Virus record (IMG/VR): IMGVR_UViG_3300030389_003243
Location: 1-26,629 of that record
Strand: one strand, 5' to 3'
DNA length: 26,629 nucleotides
DNA from: a virus
Lineage: Duplodnaviria; Caudoviricetes
Under the pieces are notes generated by a model. It made no database searches and had not been told where the DNA came from. It saw only the letters and a program-made list of their open reading frames with translations. The translations under genes were made by a program, and so were the position numbers. Within the stretch, counting starts at the first letter, position 1, and each line of letters opens with the position of its first letter. Below, piece by piece: positions 805-24,341 of the stretch.

Positions 805-1989
805 GTGTTTATCACTAAAAAAGGTATACCTGCAGAAAATAGCAACAATTATTTTAAAGCAGGTTGGAAACCTACAGTAGACTTTGACCACACAACAGGT
901 GTAGGTGAAATTACACATGTAGGTACAGACCCAAACTACGAAAGCAAGACAGATGAGATACTTCGTAGTTGGGGATTTGACCCAAAACTATACGAAATTG
1001 ATGGAATACTAAAAGTATCATCATGGAACGCACAACTTAAAGGTGGTATAGTTGAAACATTTTACGCATTTAAAGGCAGTGTAAGAAGAAAGTCTGCAAA
1101 TCGTGACAAATACTTTAACTCACTGTTTAAACATGCTGTAAAAAAGCCGCCATTACCTAAGCATAAATTATTTGGTGGTGATACTGCCTTCTTTTTTTTC
1201 ATGTCTGATTGGCAATTAGGCAAAGATGACTTTGGTGTAGAAAATACAATCAAAAGATATGACATAGCACTGCAAGATGCACTTGCTTTGTTAAAAAACT
1301 ACAGGAAAATAGGTTATCAAATAGATGAAATATACTTAGTAGGAATGGGTGACCTCACAGAAAACTGTACAAAATTTTTCTACGACAGTCAACCTTACAA
1401 TGTTTCTTTAAATCTCATGGAACAATACAGCCTAGCTAGGGCAATGATGTTTAAAACTGTAGAAACATTTCTACCTCATGCAGACAAAATTGTGCTGACA
1501 GGTGTTCCAGGTAATCATGGTGAAATGACAAGAAGTGCAAAAGGTCAAGTATCAACAAGCAGGTTAGATAACTCAGACACCATGCACATAGAAATTATGA
1601 AAGAAATCTTTGATGCAAATCCTGATAGATATAAAAAAGTTGAGGTAATAATACCTGATGATTATCATCTTACGCTTGTGGTCAAAGAAAAACAGATATC
1701 TTTTACACATGGACACATGACAAATGGCGGTGGAAATGCAGAAGCAAAAATAGAAAAGTGGTGGAAAGGTCAGATGTATGGGTTTCTTCCTAGTGCAAAC
1801 TCAAACATACTCGTAACTGCACACTATCATCACTTTCGTGCAAAACAACAAGGCGATAGACAGTGGTTTCAATGCCCAAGTTTAGATAAGAGTTTAGATT
1901 TTACAGCTAGGACAGGCTTGTGGTCACACCCCGGAGTATTAACACTACTTGTTAATGACAGGGGTGCATCATTCCCTGTCATTGTTTAA
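805..1989 (+). CDS. Calcineurin-like metallophosphoesterase (Mre11-like, actinophage type)
   Basis: All five motifs in order: SDWQ, GDLTE, GNHG, THGH, AHYHH. Start uncertain because GGAGG is very close to the GTG. Confidence 0.85.
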   Translation: MFITKKGIPAENSNNYFKAGWKPTVDFDHTTGVGEITHVGTDPNYESKTDEILRSWGFDPKLYEIDGILKVSSWNAQLKGGIVETFYAFKGSVRRKSANRDKYFNSLFKHAVKKPPLPKHKLFGGDTAFFFFMSDWQLGKDDFGVENTIKRYDIALQDALALLKNYRKIGYQIDEIYLVGMGDLTENCTKFFYDSQPYNVSLNLMEQYSLARAMMFKTVETFLPHADKIVLTGVPGNHGEMTRSAKGQVSTSRLDNSDTMHIEIMKEIFDANPDRYKKVEVIIPDDYHLTLVVKEKQISFTHGHMTNGGGNAEAKIEKWWKGQMYGFLPSANSNILVTAHYHHFRAKQQGDRQWFQCPSLDKSLDFTARTGLWSHPGVLTLLVNDRGASFPVIV

Positions 1990-2358
1990 ACAAGCTGTAG
2001 CCAATTCTTCTATAGGTAGTAATATGCCTTTAGAATTATTGTCATCACCACCGACAACATCTCTGTCTGTGCCTACATACTTTCTACATAGGTCTTTTAA
2101 TACAGCCACAGGGATAATGTAAGTCATTACAGGTTTATTATCTCTTACTAACATCAAAGCCCAATACTCTGCTTCAGTCACAGATAAGCCACTTTTTGTA
2201 CCTTTGTACTCGTATTCTACAAAATGATTACCTGTTTTTTCCCACAGGTGTCGCTCACTTTTGACTTCAATCTTAGTGCCTATAAAGAACTCACTTAATT
2301 TTTGTTCCATCTCTAAACCTTTGGCTAGGTCTAAATCAAATTTATTATTACTGCTCAT
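1969..2358 (-). CDS. PD-(D/E)xK nuclease-like phage protein
   Basis: FDLDLAKG..E, IEVKSE, TGNHFVEYE and SGLSVTEAEYW form a pattern common in small phage restriction-endonuclease-fold proteins. Confidence 0.6.
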   Translation of the reverse strand: MSSNNKFDLDLAKGLEMEQKLSEFFIGTKIEVKSERHLWEKTGNHFVEYEYKGTKSGLSVTEAEYWALMLVRDNKPVMTYIIPVAVLKDLCRKYVGTDRDVVGGDDNNSKGILLPIEELATACLNNDRE

Positions 2359-2764
2359 ACCAACAATCTTTACTACTATTCCAATGATGAGAACCGCTAT
2401 TGTAATATAACCAACTTGCAGTTTTAATATTCACGCTTGGGGTCTTACGATTACCTTTAATGTTTAATTTATTTTTAAGCCAAAGCCATGTGCTGTCCCA
2501 AAATTGAAACAACCCAACATCAGTTGAGTTATCTCTGTTTATATTAACAGCATTTGGTCTGCCACTGCTCTCACAATAAATAATAAGTAGTGCTTCTCTT
2601 ACATCTTCTTTTTTAAAATAAAGGCTGACACTTTCCTCCCATTCAATAACATTCAAAATTTTTTCATTATTGTTTAAACAGGAAGCATAAACCTTTATTT
2701 CATTTAGTGTTTCTTGTGTTGGCGTTGCACATAGTATCAACGAACTCAATACAACGCCAAACAT
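2348..2764 (-). CDS. Secreted lytic transglycosylase (SLT/lysozyme-like fold)
   Basis: Hydrophobic N-terminal signal-like segment; catalytic CESSG; AVN, GLFQF..STW, NIKTA and HW..SKDC motifs. AAGGAG RBS. Confidence 0.8.
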   Translation of the reverse strand: MFGVVLSSLILCATPTQETLNEIKVYASCLNNNEKILNVIEWEESVSLYFKKEDVREALLIIYCESSGRPNAVNINRDNSTDVGLFQFWDSTWLWLKNKLNIKGNRKTPSVNIKTASWLYYNSGSHHWNSSKDCWYEQ

Positions 2765-3144
2765 TAGAACTCCTTACCGCTACTTTCTTCGTTTTTAAAT
2801 GTTTTTTTAAGTAAGTTTCTAAATCTATTTACTTCATTCAATCTCTGTGTTTCAAGTTTTTTCATTATTTCGTGTAACTCACCTATCATAAGTGTAGCCT
2901 CAAACTTGTCCTCACTGTTGACAAAAGTAAAATCAACCTTGTATAAATCTACCCAACTAAGATATATCTCACCATAAACACTAGGCAATGTAAAAGACAT
3001 ACCGCCTCTTTCTTTGTCTAATCTTTTAGCTAACCAATCACTGCTATCAATTTCTAGTTCAGTAAATATACCAACTAAACCATTGAAGCCATAATCTGTT
3101 TCGTTTTTTTTAGGTTTACTATCATTATTAGAATGGGATTTCAT
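2764..3144 (-). CDS. Hypothetical protein (126 aa)
   Basis: Start moved from 3195 to ATG 3144 (MKSHSNND), which has GGAGG upstream. Coupled to the next gene by TAATG. Confidence 0.65.
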   Translation of the reverse strand: MKSHSNNDSKPKKNETDYGFNGLVGIFTELEIDSSDWLAKRLDKERGGMSFTLPSVYGEIYLSWVDLYKVDFTFVNSEDKFEATLMIGELHEIMKKLETQRLNEVNRFRNLLKKTFKNEESSGKEF

Positions 3145-3442
3145 CTTGCTTTCCTCCACTGTATTTCCTTTCTTCAGCAGTAGTGATAATTGCATTGCAC
3201 CTCACATCTGACTTGTAATAGGTCTTCTCATCTATTTGTTTAAACAAAAAGACACACATTTCATTATTTTGCGTGTCAATTACTACAGGTCTTTCATTTT
3301 GTTTTGGGCATTGCAAACCCTCGACAACTAACTTGCATTTTCTATCTAAAGGTGCGGCTTTATCAAAATCGTAATTAGGATAACGCACCTTTAATTTTTC
3401 TTTAAGTTTTTCTATGTTGATATTTGTTTGTTCTAAAGCCAT
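3128..3442 (-). CDS. Hypothetical protein with four Cys and an SSB-like acidic tail (QDEIPF)
   Basis: ORF overlaps both neighbours. The C-terminal DEIPF resembles SSB interaction tails. Adjacent to the annealase. Confidence 0.6.
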   Translation of the reverse strand: MALEQTNINIEKLKEKLKVRYPNYDFDKAAPLDRKCKLVVEGLQCPKQNERPVVIDTQNNEMCVFLFKQIDEKTYYKSDVRCNAIITTAEERKYSGGKQDEIPF

Positions 3443-4344
3443 GTACTAGGAACTTCTTTTTCGCCTTTAGAACCAATGTAACCTCCCCAACCACAACCAC
3501 CTGCGTTGTTCCAATTAGTACAGGTGAAGTCAGGTATGCCACCAAACTTCGTTGAGTTATCAGCTTTCTTTTGTCTGTTATCCTCTATGTTGTCAGTTTT
3601 TTTACATTGTGGGCATACTTTTGCGTGGCTCTTAACCTCGCCAAAAACATCTTCTACAATCTCTTTGTCGCTAGGTTCTTCTACAACAATTTTATTTTTG
3701 TCTTGTGCTTGTGCTTGATAAAACAAATCTAAAAAGTTATCTAATTCAAAACTTGTCCATTTTCCCATGTCTGTTTCATTTGTTTGTTTAAACAAGTTCC
3801 ATGCCTCTAGCTTGTACTTGCCTCTAAGTTCACTATCCTCTTCTGCGTGTTGCAATTCGTTAGTAATTCTTGTTAAATAATCTTCTTTTGTAGTTTCCTT
3901 AACAATTTCTTTTGAAGAATTATCTAATTGTTTTATTACTTTTTTTGTTTCTTCTTCGGCATAATGTTCTTCTTCTGTGCTCTCACCCACCCATAGATGA
4001 AGCCCAAGTCCAAACCTCATGCAACATCTTTTAATGCTGTCGCTAACTGCAAGTTTAAGAACTTCGCTTTCAGTATTGTTTTCAAGTTGATACTTACTTA
4101 CATCACCAACCTCTTCTACAACACCTAATCCCTCTATTTCAAGTCTGCCTTTAGCACCGACAATAGCATTGTCTTTGCCTCGTATTTCATCAAAAGTAAA
4201 GTTGTATTTGCCTCCAATGACTTCTACTAATCTCTTAGTGTACAAGTGATGGGGAACATATTCGCCAAACTTACCCTTTGGCGCAGGTCTTACATCTTTC
4301 TTGTCAAAGTCTTTTATTAATTTCTTGTGTGTTTCTTTATCCAT
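3433..4344 (-). CDS. Sak/Rad52-family single-strand annealing protein with C-terminal Zn ribbon
   Basis: YVPHHLYTKRL and AVSDSIKRCCMRFGLGLHLW are Rad52/22 signature motifs; C-terminal CPQC...DNR...PDFTC...C. Confidence 0.85.
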   Translation of the reverse strand: MDKETHKKLIKDFDKKDVRPAPKGKFGEYVPHHLYTKRLVEVIGGKYNFTFDEIRGKDNAIVGAKGRLEIEGLGVVEEVGDVSKYQLENNTESEVLKLAVSDSIKRCCMRFGLGLHLWVGESTEEEHYAEEETKKVIKQLDNSSKEIVKETTKEDYLTRITNELQHAEEDSELRGKYKLEAWNLFKQTNETDMGKWTSFELDNFLDLFYQAQAQDKNKIVVEEPSDKEIVEDVFGEVKSHAKVCPQCKKTDNIEDNRQKKADNSTKFGGIPDFTCTNWNNAGGCGWGGYIGSKGEKEVPSTWL

Positions 4345-4546
4345 TTGCTCTTTCCTTTTCTATAATTTTGTAAACCCTTTGTCTACTTATATTTAAAACA
4401 TCTGCAATTTCCTGTACTCTGAACCCACTGTTTAAACAAGCAGCAATAGCTTTGCTACGATTGGCAATACAAACATCTAAGTTTGCTTTGCTTCTCTCAT
4501 ACAATTCTTGTGATTGTTTTAATACTCTAATTTCTTTGTGCGACAT
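4337..4546 (-). CDS. Helix-turn-helix DNA-binding protein
   Basis: GFRVQEIADVLNISRQRVYKII is a classic HTH. GAGGAGG RBS. Confidence 0.85.
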   Translation of the reverse strand: MSHKEIRVLKQSQELYERSKANLDVCIANRSKAIAACLNSGFRVQEIADVLNISRQRVYKIIEKERANG

Positions 4547-4689
4547 TATTCTTTCACCTCCTCATATTTTGATGATAAAACTTTATGACCTTTCATATTG
4601 TTTATGTACATAATTAAAAAACTTACTGCACCCTCGCCTTGTCTTACCAAGTTTTTAGTGTCAATTTCTATGCCCAAAGTTAATTTCAT
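4546..4689 (-). CDS. Hypothetical protein (47 aa, MKLTLGIEIDTKNLVRQGEG...), not in ORF track
   Basis: Fills the gap exactly: ATG 1 nt after the upstream stop, TAATG overlap with the HTH gene. Confidence 0.65.
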   Translation of the reverse strand: MKLTLGIEIDTKNLVRQGEGAVSFLIMYINNMKGHKVLSSKYEEVKE

Positions 4690-4690
4690 C

Positions 4691-4984
4691 TTAGGCAATG
4701 TTTATCCTTTCTTGATATATTTCCACAGGCAATGATGTTTCGTATGCCGAAACTTGTATGCTAGGCATTACTTTTTTGAAAGTAATAAGTTTTGTAGTTG
4801 TATTGTTAAAGACTTCTAGTTGTTTAAACTGTGCCTTTGCAATGTCATTTATTTCTATGCTGATAGGATTTTCATCTATAATCTTATCTTCATCAGCGTT
4901 GTACTTATACAAAAACGATATAAGACTTCCTACTTCTAAATTATGAAATCCTCTTGCGTTTTTGTTTGACTTTCCTACTGCCAT
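4691..4984 (-). CDS. Hypothetical protein
   Basis: GAGGAGG RBS and TAATG coupling. Confidence 0.7.
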   Translation of the reverse strand: MAVGKSNKNARGFHNLEVGSLISFLYKYNADEDKIIDENPISIEINDIAKAQFKQLEVFNNTTTKLITFKKVMPSIQVSAYETSLPVEIYQERINIA

Positions 4985-5184
4985 TATTCCTCCTCTAATT
5001 CTTTAGCAACTTTTATTGTGTTCTCGTTATGGTCTTTAACAAACTCATCTAACAACTCTCTAATTCTTTGCGGATTTGTTTTTTTAAGGTGGATTGTTTT
5101 TTCTACTACTTGTCCACCACAAGCATTAGCTAACTTGATAGCCCATGCTTTAAGCAGCTTTGGCTCATCAAATATATTAGGCAT
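4984..5184 (-). CDS. Hypothetical protein
   Basis: GGGAGG RBS; co-oriented with the operon. Confidence 0.7.
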   Translation of the reverse strand: MPNIFDEPKLLKAWAIKLANACGGQVVEKTIHLKKTNPQRIRELLDEFVKDHNENTIKVAKELEEE

Positions 5185-5213
5185 ATTTTTCCTCCCTTTA
5201 CCTATTGTTGTGT

Positions 5214-5375
5214 TTAACTGTTTATTGGTTCTAATTCGTATAAAGAAACAATAAAGTAGTTAGAACCTGTATCTTTTAACTCTCTAACTTTTTGCTTTGC
5301 TTCCTCTTTAGTTGTAAACTTCCATGAGAAAACACTGCTGTCAAAGATTGATACACTCTTAACTAAGTATTTCAT
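5214..5375 (-). CDS. Hypothetical protein (53 aa, MKYLVKSVSIFD...)
   Basis: ATG 5375 preferred over TTG 5411 because a TATAAT lies within the longer version. Contains F.TKEEA, typical of small phage proteins. Confidence 0.55.
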   Translation of the reverse strand: MKYLVKSVSIFDSSVFSWKFTTKEEAKQKVRELKDTGSNYFIVSLYELEPINS

Positions 5376-5399
5376 ACCCACTATGGTAACAGGTATTGA

Positions 5400-5430
5400 A
5401 TTATACAACAAGTATTTACTACGATTTCAC
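5400..5430 (-). promoter_or_regulatory. Possible sigma70/SigA-type promoter
   Basis: Perfect TATAAT on the minus strand at 5405-5400 in an intergenic gap; -35 poor; TGTTTAAACA site immediately upstream (5435-5444). Confidence 0.4.
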
Positions 5431-5437
5431 TGTTTGT

Positions 5438-5638
5438 TTAAACAACCTGTCTTTCTTGTTCTAATTTAATATACTTATCAATTAACTTTATAAAACTTTT
5501 TACTGCGCTTAACTCGACATCAAGTTCTTTTGTTTCACTGTCAATTTGGTGTTGTTGACTAGCAACAATCTTTTTAAAACCAATTAATTCTGCCTCCCAT
5601 TTTTTTACTGCTATTCGTAAAACTTTTAGCATTGTCAT
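5438..5638 (-). CDS. Hypothetical coiled-coil protein
   Basis: AGGAGG RBS; its stop codon is the TAA within a TGTTTAAACA site. Confidence 0.7.
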   Translation of the reverse strand: MTMLKVLRIAVKKWEAELIGFKKIVASQQHQIDSETKELDVELSAVKSFIKLIDKYIKLEQERQVV

Positions 5639-5720
5639 CTTTCCACCTCCTATTAATTAATAACCATGAAAGCCCTGTTAGGATTACCACTAAAATAATC
5701 CAATACCACCCATAGTTCAT
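5574..5720 (-). CDS. Small membrane protein (48 aa, MNYGWYWIILVVILTGLSWLLINRRWK...), not in ORF track
   Basis: ATG directly follows the upstream TAA; one clear TM helix followed by RRWK; overlaps the downstream gene by 65 nt. Confidence 0.55.
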   Translation of the reverse strand: MNYGWYWIILVVILTGLSWLLINRRWKDDNAKSFTNSSKKMGGRINWF

Positions 5721-5915
5721 TTAAATTGCCCAATCTTTAATATATGATTTATGTTTTCTTTTAACTAATCCACAGTCACAATTTGCAGAAAAGATTGTAT
5801 TATCTTTTTTTTTAAGAAATGCAATAATTTTTCTTAAATCATTAATACCGCTTGTATGTGTACAAATTTCTTCTTCTTTATCTAAGAGTTCTTTAACATA
5901 TTGAGTGTTACTCAT
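5721..5915 (-). CDS. Hypothetical protein (CxH...CxC, possibly metal-binding)
   Basis: GGGAGG RBS upstream of ATG. Confidence 0.65.
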   Translation of the reverse strand: MSNTQYVKELLDKEEEICTHTSGINDLRKIIAFLKKKDNTIFSANCDCGLVKRKHKSYIKDWAI

Positions 5916-5926
5916 TATTCCTCCCT

Positions 5927-5959
5927 CGCTTGTGGTCCGCTTGTGGTCCGCTTGTGGTT
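5927..5959. repeat. Tandem repeat, 3 x 11 bp (CGCTTGTGGTC)
   Basis: Units at 5927, 5938 and 5949 (last base differs in the third); GC-rich against an AT-rich background. Confidence 0.9.
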
Positions 5960-5972
5960 TATATTTTTGTGT

Positions 5973-6178
5973 ACAGCTACCACTATAGTCGTAGATATTT
6001 ATATAGTTAATAGATATTTACCATAATGGTAGCTGTTTAAACAGCTATCTACTTTCAGTCGGTCAGCAACAGGGCTGTATTTTTACTCACCTCTTACTTA
6101 TAGATAGCTTGTAACACACAGATACGAGTATCTCACTAAGTTCCGATACTGTTGAATTACTCTATGTGCTACAAGCTA
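5973..6178 (-). ncRNA. Chain of stem-enclosed small RNA candidates
   Basis: Stems 5973-5986/6023-6036, 6043-6051/6101-6109 and 6105-6122/6161-6178; mismatches are G-U on the minus strand; no convincing ORF. Confidence 0.5.
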
Positions 6179-6192
6179 CTTATACTTCATAA

Positions 6193-6409
6193 TATTTTTA
6201 CGAGTAACTTAGTGTTTGATTGCAATTAAGCCTTTTCAAGCTCTGTTCTTTGCAGGTAGTTTCTTTTGCGATACTTTGGAATGAGGCAGTAGACTATTAG
6301 TAAGTATTCAGCGCCATTGGATAAATACAAACCTCACTAAAGCGTTCATCAGGTAGTTTCGATAAGCGACTATGAACAAGTACGAACCACTAAGCTACTC
6401 ATAAAAATA
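6193..6409 (-). ncRNA. Structured RNA candidate (about 217 nt) closed by a 22-bp stem
   Basis: 6193-6214 pairs with 6388-6409 (20 Watson-Crick plus 2 G-U on minus); internal helices; duplicated GAAACTACCTG. Confidence 0.55.
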
Positions 6410-6435
6410 CTATTTATGCTCTTTGTTTAAACAAA

Positions 6436-6473
6436 GCGAAGGGGATAGTCGAGGCACCAACTATCCCAATCGC
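6436..6473 (-). terminator. Hairpin after the DUF5049-like gene (terminator or processing site)
   Basis: Minus strand GGGATAGTTG-gtgcct-CGACTATCCC, outer GCGA/TCGC, then TTTGTTT. Confidence 0.5.
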
Positions 6474-6483
6474 TATACATTAA

Positions 6484-6699
6484 TTATGTGTTTTGACTTT
6501 CAGGCACAAAACCATAAAAAAAACCTTTCATGTAGATTTCTTTGTTGTCTTGTAGCCAACTAGCGACATCATTAGGAACTAACTCACATAATTGTTTGAC
6601 ACTAGCCATGTTGATTAAGCCACTTTCTCTAACACTAGAGATAGCCTCATACACATTATCAGGGATAACCAACTTACCCTCTGCTGTTTCGGTAGCCAT
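6484..6699 (-). CDS. DUF5049-like protein
   Basis: VYEAISSVRESGLINM resembles the I..IR.SG.TNM motif. AAGGAGG RBS. Confidence 0.65.
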   Translation of the reverse strand: MATETAEGKLVIPDNVYEAISSVRESGLINMASVKQLCELVPNDVASWLQDNKEIYMKGFFYGFVPESQNT

Positions 6700-6712
6700 T
6701 TGTCCTCCTTTA

Positions 6713-6759
6713 TAGTTACCACAATGCTGTTTGTTTAAACAAACAGCACTAGCTAACTA
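6713..6759 (-). promoter_or_regulatory. Intergenic hairpin with a perfect 24-bp palindrome centred on TGTTTAAACA
   Basis: TGCTGTTTGTTTAAACAAACAGCA at 6725-6748; outer TAGTTA/TAACTA; directly upstream of an RBS. Confidence 0.7.
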
Positions 6760-6760
6760 C

Positions 6761-6919
6761 TTATAGTTCTACACCTTCCTTGTTAAATGTTTTATCTATA
6801 CTAGGAACATATAATATTCCATCTTCTTTTAATAAAGATAATGTATTTTTAAACCACTCATCATTTCTTTTATGTTCAAGTTCGCTTAATGTTTTATAAT
6901 ATTTTTTGCTCCATGACAT
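6761..6919 (-). CDS. Hypothetical protein (52 aa, MSWSKKYYKTLSELEHKRNDEWF...), not in ORF track
   Basis: AAAGGAGGCAAAA-ATG; open to TAA at 6761. Confidence 0.7.
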   Translation of the reverse strand: MSWSKKYYKTLSELEHKRNDEWFKNTLSLLKEDGILYVPSIDKTFNKEGVEL

Positions 6920-6935
6920 TTTTGCCTCCTTTAGA

Positions 6936-7043
6936 TTATTTTTTAAGTTCTTTGATTATTTCTAATGCTTCTTTTTTATTAGGATTTATGTTATACATAT
7001 CCCACTCTACAATTTCTTGCAATCTGTTTAGCTTTTCATTCAT
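6936..7043 (-). CDS. Hypothetical protein (35 aa, MNEKLNRLQEIVEWDMYNINPNKKEALEIIKELKK), not in ORF track
   Basis: TAAGGAG RBS 6 nt before ATG. Confidence 0.65.
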   Translation of the reverse strand: MNEKLNRLQEIVEWDMYNINPNKKEALEIIKELKK

Positions 7044-7063
7044 ATCAACTCCTTACCTTGTGT

Positions 7064-7130
7064 TAGTAATTACCTTGTTGTAACTACTATAAACCCCGCT
7101 GTTTAAACAACGAGGTCTAACTAATTACAA
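7064..7130 (-). promoter_or_regulatory. Intergenic overlapping-hairpin module
   Basis: Hairpin A 7078-7130 (TGTTTAAACA apex, G-U pairs on minus); hairpin B 7064-7073/7080-7089. Confidence 0.65.
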
Positions 7131-7523
7131 TTAGTATGGTGATGGGTATGGCGGTTGTTCAGTCGCAAACAAGTCATTATAATCTTGCTTGGATAGAACA
7201 CGCTTTGCCTCCTCTAAAGTAAGAAAGTGTTTATCTTTTGGATTACCGCAATCGATATCCTCCATAGATATTCCAAAGTTGTGATTAGATACAGTGGCAC
7301 TGTTTAATAATCTAATATCTCTAAAGGTCTGTTCATCAGTTAGACCTGCTCTTTGAACTTTGATACTTTCTTCTATATATCTAGTATCTACATTGATACC
7401 TAGTTTGCCATTAAGTGAACGCCACTGCTGTAACGCATGGTCATTACTCTCTGCCGCAACTATATGTACATCAATAAAATGACTAAATACACATTTAGCT
7501 TGAACTACATATTGTTCTACCAT
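7131..7523 (-). CDS. Hypothetical early protein
   Basis: AAGGAGG RBS; bounded by hairpin modules on both sides. Confidence 0.75.
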   Translation of the reverse strand: MVEQYVVQAKCVFSHFIDVHIVAAESNDHALQQWRSLNGKLGINVDTRYIEESIKVQRAGLTDEQTFRDIRLLNSATVSNHNFGISMEDIDCGNPKDKHFLTLEEAKRVLSKQDYNDLFATEQPPYPSPY

Positions 7524-7547
7524 CTAATGCCTCCTTAATATTGTGAT

Positions 7548-7613
7548 GATATTTATCTGTTGATAAATATCGTTGAACGCTCATTGTTTAAACAAGCGCT
7601 CTACGATATCTAT
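7548..7613 (-). promoter_or_regulatory. Intergenic overlapping-hairpin module
   Basis: Hairpin A 7563-7613 (TGTTTAAACA apex); hairpin B is a perfect 10-bp stem 7548-7557/7562-7571. Confidence 0.65.
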
Positions 7614-8320
7614 TGATAATCTTTGCGCAATTTTAGTGGTAAGTCTACAACTGTAGAAGAACCACAAGCCATACAACGAAAGTTATCGCCAACTTTCTTG
7701 TATACTGCCATAGATACACGACTGATTAAGCCAAAACCCTGCGCAATAGATTTGTCACTAGCACCTATACAAGCCTCTGCACCTGTACATTTAACTGCAA
7801 CTGTAGTTGAGCCAACACCCTCTTTTTGCTTGATAGCATAATGAGGAAGTAAGCCTAACTTTTTGATGAAGTCTTGTATAAGTAGAGTAAACTGCGGTCC
7901 TGCAACGGTCGCTGTAGGAATACCATCCGCACCTAGATAATCTATAATGATTTTCTTAAAGCGGTGACCATGTCCTGTGCCAACAGGCAGCACTGCATGA
8001 GTTACCTCATGTGCAACTATCTGCGCAGTTTCGATACTTTGGGCAAGTGAAGTGCCTGTGCGAGTAGGGCAGATGAAGATTTCTCTAACATTGCCTTCGC
8101 TGTGTTCTTCATAATGACATACGCCAATAGCTTTGGCTTTACCTTTTGGCATAAAGCCGATAGATAATTTAATGACATCACGAGCAACTTCGCATACAAA
8201 CTCTTTGCTTATTTCATTATAGATAAAATCTGCAACCTTGTTAAGCCATTCTTCACGATTACCTTTGAAGAAATGAATTTCTTCTTGTGTATCTGTACTA
8301 GATTTTTGTTTTGTTTCCAT
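7610..8320 (-). CDS. SprT-like zinc metalloprotease with C-terminal Zn ribbon
   Basis: AIGVC, AHEVTH (HExxH), GHG..FK; C-terminal C-x5-C...CMAC. AGGAGG RBS. Confidence 0.8.
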   Translation of the reverse strand: METKQKSSTDTQEEIHFFKGNREEWLNKVADFIYNEISKEFVCEVARDVIKLSIGFMPKGKAKAIGVCHYEEHSEGNVREIFICPTRTGTSLAQSIETAQIVAHEVTHAVLPVGTGHGHRFKKIIIDYLGADGIPTATVAGPQFTLLIQDFIKKLGLLPHYAIKQKEGVGSTTVAVKCTGAEACIGASDKSIAQGFGLISRVSMAVYKKVGDNFRCMACGSSTVVDLPLKLRKDYQ

Positions 8321-8346
8321 TGTGTTTGCCTCCTATATATTTATTG

Positions 8347-8413
8347 TACACTCATAAAAATTATAAGTGTATCTATCTACTCACTATTTGTTTAAACAGT
8401 GAGTAGTTAGATA
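8347..8413 (-). promoter_or_regulatory. Intergenic double-hairpin module
   Basis: Hairpin A 8370-8385/8398-8413 with TGTTTAAAC in the loop; hairpin B 8347-8371. Confidence 0.65.
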
Positions 8414-8414
8414 T

Positions 8415-8756
8415 TTAATTAACCTCTTTTATTATATTTATAGATTTAGTTATAGATTTACTAAATTCATCTTCATAATAAAAAGGATGTTGAACTGATT
8501 GAAGAACTTCATCAATTAATGAGGTTATCTCATCATATGACCTATTCTCAAACAAAGATAAACATTTACCAAATAAAACAAAGTCTTGCTTATGAACATA
8601 TTTTTCAAAGTCAACAGTAAAAGTATCGTTTAAATTTGTCATTGTGTTGTGTGCAATGTTTACAAAATCATTCCATACATTTGCCTGACCTGGCGTACCA
8701 TTCAAAGACCAATCATAAGCTTTTCTTAGTATTTCTAATTCTATCCATCTTTTCAT
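8415..8756 (-). CDS. Hypothetical protein (113 aa), first gene of the early arm
   Basis: AGGAGGCAAA-ATG at 8756 (MKRWIELEILRK); the longer track start at 8804 lies inside a hairpin. Confidence 0.75.
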   Translation of the reverse strand: MKRWIELEILRKAYDWSLNGTPGQANVWNDFVNIAHNTMTNLNDTFTVDFEKYVHKQDFVLFGKCLSLFENRSYDEITSLIDEVLQSVQHPFYYEDEFSKSITKSINIIKEVN

Positions 8757-8778
8757 TTTGCCTCCTATAATTTGCTTT

Positions 8779-8823
8779 ATAAATAGCTTGATGCACACCC
8801 TCAATGTGTATCAAGCTACCTAT
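8779..8823 (-). promoter_or_regulatory. Long hairpin upstream of the first early gene (RNase III-site-like)
   Basis: TAGCTTGAT-g-CACA...TGTG-t-ATCAAGCTA at 8784-8818; arms resemble those of the 6105-6178 stem. Confidence 0.6.
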
Positions 8824-9331
8824 TAATCCATACTGACTTGAAACTTTTAGTCATTACAACTTCAATTCCAATATGGTTCTGAATTAATAAATAGCCTTAA
8901 ATATAAGGCATAAATAGAATATGCGTACAGTCTCCTTTGTTTCTGTAAATATCCAATCTAAATCAATAATGTCAATTTTTTCGCTAGTGTTGTTGTTTTA
9001 TGTCTTTCGACCAATCTTCGTTAGAAGTAGAGTTCTTACCGATTACACCCGGTCATTCTCTATGGGGTTTAGCGCCTGTATTTAGTATTTAGTTGAACAG
9101 CGCCTTGCCTGTACTTGCCTTGAACACTTTCTTAGGCTTTTTTAAGTAGATGTCTAAGTCCATCTCTATTGTGTTACTACTAACCTTAGGGGGATTTGAA
9201 ATTTATGCCAACTTATGTTGACATATTTCTGAAAAAATATACTTAGTAAAAGCCTATAAACATTGACTATTACAGGTGCATGAAGAATTATTTATTTTTT
9301 TTTGAAATAATCTTTAATTTGCGGTGACATT

Positions 9332-9366
9332 TCTTAGGCGTAACTTTCTGCGCCTAAGATTTTTTT
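9332..9366 (+). terminator. Rho-independent terminator
   Basis: TCTTAGGCG/CGCCTAAGA stem (plus T-G and A-T pairs) followed by T7. Confidence 0.7.
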
Positions 9367-9964
9367 GGTGCTGCTGTTAGATTTGAAAAGAATAATAATG
9401 TGCTGATATCAATGTTAGTGTACCCTCTGCCTGTTTGTGTTTAAACAACTACCAAATACAGCCAAACTGTACCCACAATATGATGTAGCACTATATATAG
9501 TGTGCATACTTACACAACACAATATATGGGCTTGGTGCCAACAAACACAAGGGCTTGGGGTAGGGTTTAATGTGCGTGGGCGCTCTTTTTATGTGTGTGT
9601 TCTTTAAAAATATGCTGTTAACTAGGCAGTAAAATAGCCACCTAAAGTGCTTGTTTAAACACTTATAGTGATTATCTAAAATAAGTAGAAACTAGACACA
9701 ACTAACCCTGTGTCATCCCTCCCAACCGATAACAAATCTGTTTATGACTTATTGTAAATATATGAAGTAATAGCCTCTAACGCTAGTTACTATGGTCAGG
9801 CAAATCCACTTTATTGAAGTTTTTATCTGATAAATCTTTCCTAGTGCCTGAAATCTATCATGTTTGTTTAAACACTATACCATAAAATATTTTTTTGTGG
9901 GGATTTCCTTACCAAGTAAAGGAGGAAACCAAAGTAAAAAAATCCCTATCTTATTTTACAGATA

Positions 9965-11473: not shown

Positions 11474-11596
11474 ATGGCTAGACAAGTTAGTTGGATGTGG
11501 GGTGGTAAAAGACATTATGGTACTCTTATAAGAGAAACCAAAACTCATAAATTTGCTAGAACTAAAAATGGCAAAATTAAAAAAATAAAAAAATAA
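11474..11596 (+). CDS. Basic 40-aa protein (MARQVSWMWGGKRHYGTLIRETK...)
   Basis: AGGAG RBS; fills the gap. Confidence 0.65.
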   Translation: MARQVSWMWGGKRHYGTLIRETKTHKFARTKNGKIKKIKK

Positions 11597-11695
11597 TTGA
11601 AGATAACCTGTCCTGTTTGTCAGGAATACTTACAGGTGGTCAAGCTTAAATTAAAATGTAAAAATAAGAAATGTAAAAATTATGACAAAAACTAA
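11597..11695 (+). CDS. Small Zn-ribbon peptide (32 aa, CPVC...CKNKKC)
   Basis: TTG start directly after the upstream stop; four Cys; overlaps the terminase start. Confidence 0.45.
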   Translation: MKITCPVCQEYLQVVKLKLKCKNKKCKNYDKN

Positions 11696-16055: not shown

Positions 16056-19000
16056 TGCGTAGATATTCTTTGCGTTATTCTTTAGATGATTTAAAAAGAC
16101 AGGCTGCACAAGAAACATTTAATCGTGCAAGTTCTTTTGACAAAGGTGTTAAAGAAACAAATCCTGATTTAGTTCAAAATATTTCTAATCTTACAAAAGC
16201 ATATCCTACAATTCCTAAAGAAATTTTGCCTTATATGGCATTAAGTGGCACTACTGCAGAAGATGAAATTGCTTTGCAGGTAGCAAATAGAGCAGCATCC
16301 ATTATAGCAAACAAAAACACACAAGACCTTGTAACAGATGTGAACTTTTTTAAACGAGGTGTACAAATGGGTTTTTTAGGGTTAGATGCTGTATTTCAAA
16401 ATATATCAAGGGGTTTTAAGTCTGCAGTTGTAGCAGCACAAAAAACAGGAAAGTTTGTACCTGGAGTTGTAGCTAATGCAACATTAGGAGGATTGTATGA
16501 AACATTTAGACCACAAGTAGAAGGTGAGGAAGGTAGTTCTACAGCTAGATACTTAAATAACATATATGGCGGTGGTGTAGGGGATGTGTTTAAACAGACA
16601 CGAGATAGATATGGAAAAAATGAGTTTCGTTTAGCTTTAGAACAAACTAGAGATAATAAACCATTAAATTTAGGAAAAGGATTTTTGCCTAAATCTTTAG
16701 ACCCAAAAGAAACACAAGTGTACTTAGATATGCGTAGAGCAGGTAGAAGTGAAAAAGAAGCATTAAGTAGAGCCATAGAAGTTTATGGACTTCCTGTTAC
16801 ACAGTTGTACGACATAAGAGAAGATGCTTTTAAATACGAAGCCAAAGATGGCACAAAAGTAAATATATCACCAGGTCGAATAGCAGCAGTGCAAGTTTTT
16901 GAACCTGGTTCTGCAGGATTTAATGTTGTATCAGGAGTTATTGATGGTGTATTTAGACTTGCAGGTGACCCAACAAACTTGGCGTTGATGTATGGTGCAG
17001 GTGTAAAGACAGCAATGAGAACTATGGTACAAGCCAATAAACAATCTAAAAATGCTGCTACATTCTTTAAATCTTTTGCTCCTGGTAAAACAGGAAAATT
17101 TAATCGTGCTGCTTTTTATGGAAGGACAGTAGATGATGTAAGAAACACAGGTTGGGGTCAAAAGTTTGGTGAAGCTATTGCAAAATTAAAAGGTGATGAA
17201 GGTAGAGCATTTTTAGATGACATTAAAGAATTTGACAATGTTCCTGCATCTGTAAAAGAAGTATTGTTACATGTTGATGATGCTGATGATGTATGGAACA
17301 TATTAGACATAGTTGCTAAAAATGGTAATTTAACAGGCAAAGAGTTTGACAACATGTTTAATTTAATTAAAAAATATGTAAATGATGATGTTGCTGCAAA
17401 CCTAGACAGAGTTAGAGAAGCAAGTGTAGAAAACATTGCTTTTGGTTTAAATAACATTCCTGCAAGACCTACAGCTATGGGTGAACTATTTAATTATGCT
17501 AACAAACTTATGATAGGAGCAAGTACAGATGTTGCACCTATGAGAAAGTTTGCAGGTTTATTATTATCTAAAGATGACCCTGCAAGAGGATTGTTAGGCA
17601 CAGGCACACAAATAGCTAGAAGTCAATTCTTTCCACGACATGTAAAAAGAGCAATGCAACTTAGACCTGAAACAACAATGGTTATAGATGATTTAGAAGC
17701 AGCATCAAGAAATGCTAATGATATGCTTAAATTATCTTTCTCTAGTGCTAAAGAAAGAGGTTATTACTCTCGATTAGTTTTGACTGCTACATCACAAAAA
17801 GATTTAGAAGAAATTGCATATCAAATAAACCAAGCAATAGCTAAAAATGTTGCAGATTACAACCCTAACTTAAAAGTAGATGTTGAAGATATAATTAAAC
17901 AACAAGAAAGCTATAACGCACAAATGAACGAATTAAGAGATTTCTTTGGTAACTCTGCAGGTGGTTCTATTGCTTTTAATGGTACACAGATTAAAAAAAG
18001 ATACAAAAAATTAATTAAAGATGTAGAGGAACATTTTAAAGCTACAGGTGTTGAAGTTAATCCTGATGATGTAGAAAAATATATATTTGAAGCAGTGCCA
18101 AGTATGCACCTATTATCACAAGCATCTAAATCTTACATGGCACAACTTATAGACCCAAGAGATGTAATACAAGCTACAAGAGCGCATCAAACATTAATTG
18201 GTCCTGCAGAAAAAAGACTTACTACATTGTTTGACAATTTAAATATATTTAATGAAAATGCTGCGGACATGAAATGGGCAGATAGATTAAAAATACCTAG
18301 AAAAGCATTTGTTGGAGGTTATTCATCAAATCGATTGACATTAAAACCAAAAACAATGTTAGATACACTACTTGATGAAGCACAGAATAAAATATTAAAA
18401 CCTTTTTGGATGTTTAGATTAGCACTACTTATGCGTATTGCACCTGAAGAAGCAGCTAGAGCGGCATTTGGCGGATATGTCAATGCGTGGTCACATCCAC
18501 TACAAAGATTAGCTATGGTATCTAATAAATATTTAAACTTTGTTGGTGATGTAAAGCGTGAAGATAAGATATTCCAATTACGCAACAACTTAGGTAACAT
18601 TGTATTTACAGGTCACATGGGTCCTGATGACTACAAAAAATTAGCTGAAATGATAGATGAAAAAACACTTAAAAATTTTTTAGCTATTGAATACCCACAG
18701 ATAGAAAAATTAGTTAAATCTTATATGCTAGAAACAAGTTATACAGGTCAAGTATCTGATTACATGATTAATGCTGCAATTAACAATGTCAATCTTAAAA
18801 CATTTGTTAGAGAAGCAGTACAGGAAAGTAAATTGTCTGTAAGCAGTAAAGAAATAAACGCTAAAGCAAAAGGAACAGTAGTTGGCTTTGATAATAAAAC
18901 AGAGTACGCATCTATGGGTGAAGCGTTAGTAGAAGGTGGAGGTTTTAGCATTGATTTAGATGCAGCAAAATTCCTAGACATGAAAAAAAGAGTGCCTTCT

Positions 19001-24006: not shown

Positions 24007-24341
24007 TGGAAGAAGATAATGTAGTACAAGACCAACCTAATACAAGGTTTGAAAGAAGCCCACAGGCAATGGCTAATGCCTCGTTGTTTAAACAACCTGC
24101 AAGAAACTATTATAAACTGCTTAAATTATTGACTATGGTTGGTGAGGGTCTAGCTAGTACAGGTGACTTTATAGGTAGTGCTGCACGAGGACCTTCAAAA
24201 TTTGTTGAAAAAATCAAATCAGAAACACAAGAATTAATTGACAGAGATAATCAGTTTTTTCAAGAAACACAAACAAACAATGTACCTTTACAAGAAATAA
24301 TCAAAAGATTGCAAGATTTTAGAGGTGACAATGATAATTAA
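24006..24341 (+). CDS. Hypothetical protein
   Basis: TAATG coupling; contains a TGTTTAAACA site at 24085. Confidence 0.65.
   Translation: MEEDNVVQDQPNTRFERSPQAMANASLFKQPARNYYKLLKLLTMVGEGLASTGDFIGSAARGPSKFVEKIKSETQELIDRDNQFFQETQTNNVPLQEIIKRLQDFRGDNDN

Follow-up and report, generated by a model that had tools for sequence, protein, structure and literature searches.

The 26,629-nt stretch of DNA analyzed here (IMG/VR record IMGVR_UViG_3300030389_003243, positions 1 to 26,629; hereafter the window) is part of a marine podovirus-like phage of ~40 kb, with near-complete relatives of 38 to 42 kb. It encodes terminase, portal, large late proteins, a holin, and an exonuclease, and its leftward arm of small genes includes a Rad52-like annealing protein and a SprT-like zinc metalloprotease (7610..8320, minus strand). 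The arm is tiled with a 10-bp palindrome, TGTTTAAACA (8-bp core, GTTTAAAC). Here, we report that this array is genuine, is under selection, and is linked to one particular phage gene, that of the SprT-like protein.

The closest cultured terminases belong to Streptomyces phages (~24% identity), and we infer an actinobacterial host. "Ca. Actinomarina" is no more than a guess for this host; two scans of prokaryotic genomes yielded no relative. No DNA polymerase, primase, or helicase was recognized by eye in the open reading frame (ORF) lists of three ~40-kb relatives (G001, G003, and G018), for which no profile search was made.

The palindrome array

The array (1124..9874, no strand assigned) comprises 16 exact copies of TGTTTAAACA, starting at 1124, 1983, 2671, 3237, 3785, 4429, 5435, 6034, 6424, 6732, 7100, 7585, 8389, 9438, 9652, and 9865, plus a single 9/10 copy at 4821. 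Two exact copies elsewhere (16587 and 24085) bring the window to 18. These counts agree with those of an earlier note made from the sequence alone. Site density is 1.94/kb in the arm versus 0.11/kb in the rest of the window, and the arm gaps are more regular than chance (coefficient of variation, 0.41 versus 0.92; P = 0.0003). Of the 36 bases directly flanking the 10-mer, one per half-site, 23 are T.

With sites masked, Markov models of orders 0 to 6 expect 0.09 to 0.22 copies, close to the ~0.1 that had been estimated by hand, and the array remains after this correction. Unmasked models of orders 5 and 6 expect 1.3 and 5.0 copies, because the sites themselves train the model. None of 100 dinucleotide shuffles reached 19 matches at one mismatch or fewer (mean, 4.73). 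A composition or codon artifact was ruled out as the cause by the shuffles, the masked models, and a comparison of codon usage. One-mismatch copies seemed scarce, a lead that was dropped since site-free relatives show the same scarcity.

The SprT-like protein and its association with the sites

The SprT-like protein (236 amino acids [aa]) ends in a C4 zinc ribbon and matches phrog_6361 (E value, 5e-18). Its active-site motif is HEVTH at residues 104 to 108 plus H117; H104, E105, H108, and H117 are invariant across 22 sequences. The ribbon cysteines are also invariant. Against the Pfam SprT-like profile (PF10263), it scores 20.5 bits (E value, 4e-4; cut-off, 25.6 bits), and the homologue from phage Dismas lies above the cut-off (26.5 bits). 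In searches with a structure model (pLDDT 79), the top solved fold was human SPRTN (6mdx), a weak match (E value, 0.032); predicted folds gave a strong match to a phage SprT model, and the fold neighbors were SprT-like. No relative of solved structure was found by sequence, and an Atlas search with the C-terminal part gave sub-threshold leads only.

Two sites (7585 and 8389) bracket the gene. ORFs were clustered across 20 genomes or long contigs, 12 site-rich and 8 site-poor (5 with a complete early arm and 3 distant), and the SprT-like family was the only one present in 12/12 and 0/8, respectively. Loci fetched via SprT were site-enriched in 67 of 74 cases (p<0.01), many being near-copies; the seven others comprised five marine loci, most of them mainly spanning late genes, and two distant ones. 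A quick exonuclease tree of 50 rows contains four changes of site status, three of which are forced by strong branches. The sites tightly co-occur with the SprT-like gene and with an intact ribbon; the earlier note had overlooked this gene among its candidate binders. A distant SprT locus (L263:1-11133) has a 12-mer repeat of another kind in eight copies, together with one GTTTAAAC directly upstream of the gene.

The pairing extends to cultured phages. Sixteen phages with SprT were hand-picked out of 168 phage-collection records matched by one homologue from Arthrobacter cluster AZ, and 10 carry arrays of GTTTA[A/C/T]AC; their hosts are actinobacterial and proteobacterial. Arrays are strong in Cassia (23 sites), Percival (16), UNTPL (39), Cen1621 (28), R5C (17), and Venkman (34) and modest in PT1 (6), Mano, Persinger, and ep3 (4 each; expected, 0.1 to 0.7); Dismas, Eden, BAjuniper, Bachaco, CN2, and Epa5 have zero or one site. 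Three phages without a whole SprT gene (Didgeridoo, IndyLu, and YuA) have none. The Microbacterium phages Didgeridoo (L270:33830-33991) and IndyLu (L280:286-447) hold a 53-aa zinc-ribbon SprT remnant only, without sites.

Site status follows the ribbon sequence. The motif R-x-[T/S] occurs in the ribbon strand of 10/10 array-bearing and 0/6 site-free cultured phages; the corresponding residues are S-I-S in the four Microbacterium negatives, and the ribbon cysteines have been lost from CN2 and Epa5. The last four phages were fetched afterwards as a test, and all fit. Among phages of a single host, Microbacterium foliorum, the arrays of Percival and Cen1621 stand against zero sites in Dismas, Eden, BAjuniper, and Bachaco.

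The variants GTTTAAAC, GTATAAAC, and GTGTAAAC differ solely at one N of GT-N-TA-N-AC; TGTATAAACA dominates in four loci (L224, L225, L228, and L230), and flanks are relaxed in two (L240 and L256). The core is adjoined by T at 91 to 100% in the window's group versus 63% in Venkman, at similar GC content. Marine SprT proteins carry a ribbon insertion of 12 residues, and, as a lead only, this insertion may read the outer bases of the 10-bp word. Spacing is even across the whole genomes of UNTPL, Percival, Cassia, and R5C (P from <0.0001 to 0.015), and sites are clustered in Venkman and the marine phages; in the window's phage and in Venkman, confinement to the early arm leaves gaps of 8 to 15 kb.

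Selection on sites in relatives

Relatives with as little as 66% exonuclease identity still carry 13 to 20 sites per arm, and other relatives at 64 to 70% identity have no sites. The in-gene site of the exonuclease (1124..1133, plus strand), read as L-F-K-H, is kept at its synonymous positions: the word persists in 40/41 site-rich loci versus 0/16 site-poor loci that retain L-F-K, a split that is slightly circular, as loci were classed by a site density that includes this site. In deduplicated loci (L009-L058), the site-rich codons are TTT in 29/29, AAA in 29/29, and a TG-ending Leu codon in 28/29, compared with 66%, 62%, and 19% for the same choices elsewhere in the gene; site-poor loci have a TG-ending Leu codon at this position in 0/14. 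In genes other than the exonuclease, two lineages carry sites at differing positions. The sites are under selection at the DNA level, and the synonymous constraint, even spacing, and conservation in relatives strengthen the earlier proposal of a region-wide protein-binding array; the two binders that it named, a helix-turn-helix (HTH) protein and a host factor, did not hold up.

Placement, hairpins, and neighboring features

In Cassia, UNTPL, Persinger, PT1, Mano, ep3, Cen1621, and the window, a site precedes the sprT start by 25 to 81 nt, even where a phage has only four to six sites. In Percival and Venkman, a site is present in the sprT start region itself; within 130 nt of the start, R5C has no site. 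In Cassia, four sites come directly after a repeated -35/-10-like element (TTGCG-N-TAnnCT), and one UNTPL site overlaps a -35-like element.

Within the window, frame checks showed that the reading frames given earlier for in-gene copies (LFKH, LFKQ, VFKQ, and CLN) and two site-borne stop codons were correct. The site at 1983..1992 sits at the convergent ends of two genes and provides the exonuclease stop codon; that at 5435..5444 provides another stop codon, and the relative G001 has an extra gene here. The site at 4429..4438, read as C-L-N within the HTH gene, is kept in site-rich relatives. Three sites (9438, 9652, and 9865) occupy non-coding DNA where the early and late arms diverge (9438..9874); none of the features in this and the two preceding sentences has an assigned strand. 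The outlying copies lie within late genes on the plus strand, at 16587..16596 (V-F-K-Q, in a gene of 2,146 aa) and 24085..24094 (L-F-K-Q). An extended -10-like element occurs directly before site 9865 (9865-9885, minus strand), as in Cassia promoters; G001 lacks an equivalent of this site.

Four sites cap hairpins on the minus strand. The hairpin at 8368..8419 (site 8389; -22.5 kcal/mol, z = -7.4) lies ~70 nt upstream of the sprT start and is a candidate autoregulatory site. That at 7564..7615 (site 7585) directly follows the sprT stop codon (-23.4 versus -13.3 kcal/mol on the other strand). The remaining two are at 7079..7130 (site 7100; -24.0 versus -7.0 kcal/mol, requiring G-U pairs on the transcript strand) and 6711..6762 (site 6732; -25.0 versus -15.9 kcal/mol). 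All hairpin claims are based on single-sequence folding; a consensus fold computed for 19 hairpins gave no information, as bulges put the sequences out of register. Rfam gave no match in the window at the gathering score.

Two further long early-arm hairpins (6099-6184 and 8776-8826) share common outer arms without TGTTTAAACA and are candidate RNA processing stems. On the early strand, site 6424 is directly preceded by a terminator-like GC-rich hairpin (6442-6467, minus strand), and a short tandem repeat of about three copies of a 10-mer (5925-5954) lies upstream of the ORF at 5721-5915. Directly before terL, a small cysteine-rich ORF (11594-11690, plus strand) has two CxxC-like pairs and no clear start codon. 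In many relatives, a site lies 32 bp ahead of the start of terL; it was considered as a promoter site and set aside, as it sits within the orthologue of this small ORF.

Interpretation

The co-occurrence and the ribbon rule make it probable that the sites are bound by the SprT-like protein, by docking of its zinc ribbon. In the mechanism that we propose, the zinc-ribbon tail of the phage's own protease would bind the palindromes, and the bound protein would dampen the expression of sprT itself and of the early arm at the transcriptional level, obstructing promoters and elongating polymerase every ~0.5 kb. The outcome would be early shut-off or a dormant, non-integrated state, and the conserved protease site would act on some protein at the DNA. 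Silencing of early genes is our lead function for the docked protein, at about an even chance. It is favored because of the site at the sprT start, the promoter-abutting sites, the focus on the early arm, and the plaques of two cluster AZ phages: those of Liebe, whose SprT is truncated, are clear, and those of Maureen are turbid (10.1101/2025.05.26.655371).

Several observations weigh against this account. Liebe and Maureen differ at three further positions (10.1101/2025.05.26.655371). The invariant HEXXH plus H would be superfluous in a pure repressor. The window's promoter scan was at chance level (43 matches versus 49 expected), with no convincing overlap of site and promoter, and some window sites lie within late genes. 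The site-poor relative G005 lacks SprT and arm sites, yet has six exact sites in its late region. The ribbon rule is not absolute, as five site-rich marine SprT proteins have Y-x-S instead of R-x-S. The orientation of asymmetric sites, biased in Cen1621 (24:4) and Cassia (16:7), is mixed in UNTPL (16:23) and Percival (8:6). Finally, no integrase was found in UNTPL or R5C, and neither tyrosine integrases (PF00589) nor serine integrases or resolvases (PF00239) were found in the five near-complete relatives searched (0/5 each), so that classical lysogeny is not the purpose of the array in these phages.

A SPRTN-like protease may have turned sequence specific in a widespread phage module that has not been described before, a possibility that we hold a little short of even. 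Its ribbon would dock on a self-marking word seeded by the phage and the protease would cut arriving proteins, whether RNA polymerase, silencers, or defense enzymes; ribbon residues would tune the word (GTTTAAAC, GTTTATAC, GTTTACAC, or the window's 10-bp form).

The strongest rival casts the docked protease as a guard against host proteins that land on phage DNA or become trapped there (restriction translocases, silencers, or crosslinked proteins); it would cut them, with regular spacing serving coverage. It would fit the invariance of HEXXH and H117, the weak top match to human SPRTN, the even spacing in the window arm and across UNTPL, Percival, Cassia, and R5C, in-gene positions that vary between lineages, and the fact that phages lacking an integrase carry dense arrays. 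Also in its favor, the word is almost constant across host phyla, whereas immunity operators diversify. We consider a guard role less likely than silencing; it leaves unexplained why the array is restricted to the early arm in the window and in Venkman, the promoter-abutting sites, and the Liebe phenotype; moreover, antirestriction by ArdC did not need protease activity (PMC7213743).

There is a slim chance that the sites are bound by a host regulator (GntR/HutC-like or other) and that the SprT-like protein is an antirepressor cleaving this regulator, in the manner of ImmA and IrrE. Such a regulator would account for the conserved protease site and for core variants that change solely at an N of GT-N-TA-N-AC. 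The earlier note had likened this pattern to the HutC-subfamily operator; however, GTTTAAAC violates the consensus GTMTAKAC (PMC4494728) at both variable positions, with T at M and A at K. The GntR domain (PF00392) was absent from the five phage genomes searched (0/5), the host genome not being among them. The identical word occurs in phages of four host classes, and site counts on M. foliorum follow the ribbon. As the word spans phages of actinobacterial and proteobacterial hosts and tracks one phage gene, a single host factor, also proposed earlier, is an unlikely binder.

A role of the word in RNA, as a hairpin loop recognized by a phage or host RNA-processing factor, is very improbable. 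Strong site hairpins, picked by their two-strand mean, are stabler on the transcript strand in 31/32 cases (background, 64%), and G-U pairs favor that strand by 75 to 14. Set against this, hairpins form at only 6/48 in-gene sites although in-gene sites are selected, the asymmetric variant is found in both orientations, one UNTPL site overlaps the -35-like element, and long stems that lack the word are found in the early arms of site-free relatives. The hairpins probably represent ordinary stems for processing or stabilizing early mRNA, comparable to the RNase III sites of T7, with loops that offer a free place for a DNA site.

Equally improbable is that the sites are chiefly crossover points that shuffle small early genes, as in PeSL cassettes. 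In G001, two copies of the 5435 site flank an extra 73-aa gene (G001:C1:7818-8062), which also adjoins sites in G003 and G007; the window's 6732-7100 segment is absent from G001, and 22/75 alignment breakpoints fall within 20 bp of a site versus 8.4% of positions. The excess is modest when set against gene ends (16/45 versus 52/239), breakpoints were counted from both sides, and alignments continue through shared sites; no recombinase was found, and in-gene sites would serve no use. Crossover at sites in some relatives is likely a side effect.

Last, binding by the HTH protein (gene at 4337..4546, minus strand), the earlier choice, has next to no likelihood: its gene carries a site and occurs in all 12 site-rich genomes, but it is also present in 3/8 site-poor relatives (G005, G027, and G033), and it leaves the arrays of unrelated SprT phages unexplained.

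Comparison with known systems

Like SPRTN, Wss1, and SprT, the window protein has an HEXXH-plus-H protease followed by a zinc-binding domain, with the weak fold match to SPRTN given above. SPRTN recognizes crosslinks and the structure of DNA and is not known to read a sequence word, and no site array was described for SPRTN, Wss1, or SprT in the literature examined. If the protease acts on its site, the phage would have a sequence-addressed protease, a new mode of genome control or protection. ArdC is likewise a mobile-element protein that combines DNA binding with a metalloprotease domain; it differs, as described, in non-specific binding of single-stranded DNA, a reversed domain order, and the lack of a site array (PMC7213743). 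T4-type PeSL cassettes share repeated stem-loops between small, variable early genes that act as recombination points, but PeSLs carry strong sigma70 promoters and terminators (PMC2839356), whereas the window's four hairpins have no strong promoter match and most window sites have no hairpin.

The nearest precedent for the protein is the SprT-like protein of cluster AZ (Lizalica gp46), a homologue proposed as a DNA-binding candidate for lysogeny control (10.1101/2025.05.26.655371). The main text of that preprint names no binding site and contains 0 occurrences of GTTTACAC or GTGTAAAC; it mentions repeats near sprT, with sequences not displayed. Compared with the AZ protein, that of the window has the 12-residue ribbon insertion and a stricter 10-bp word. 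No literature linking the word to SprT was found in a search that left most subscription journals outside. The window contributes the 10-bp form, the gain and loss of sites between close relatives, the ribbon rule, and the hairpins. The word is a candidate DNA target for a common, unexplained phage protein family (the 168 records above) and gives the missing immunity repressor of the AZ phages a testable identity; the same pairing in cultured phages on laboratory hosts makes a direct test possible.

The nearest precedent for the array is that of Cluster A mycobacteriophages (L5 and TipsytheTRex), in which more than 20 short sites genome-wide are read by one phage protein that silences transcription (PMC9283540). 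Both systems have many scattered sites, at promoters and gene junctions. Cluster A stoperators are asymmetric, 13 bp long, and oriented with transcription, and their reader is an immunity repressor with HTH and Stoperator domains in temperate phages (PMC9283540); here, the sites are of 8 to 10 bp, palindromic or in both orientations, and frequently in-gene, the putative reader is a SprT-like metalloprotease with a zinc ribbon, and the five near-complete relatives have no integrase. If the SprT-like protein only represses, the array would represent stoperator-like silencing by a new reader.

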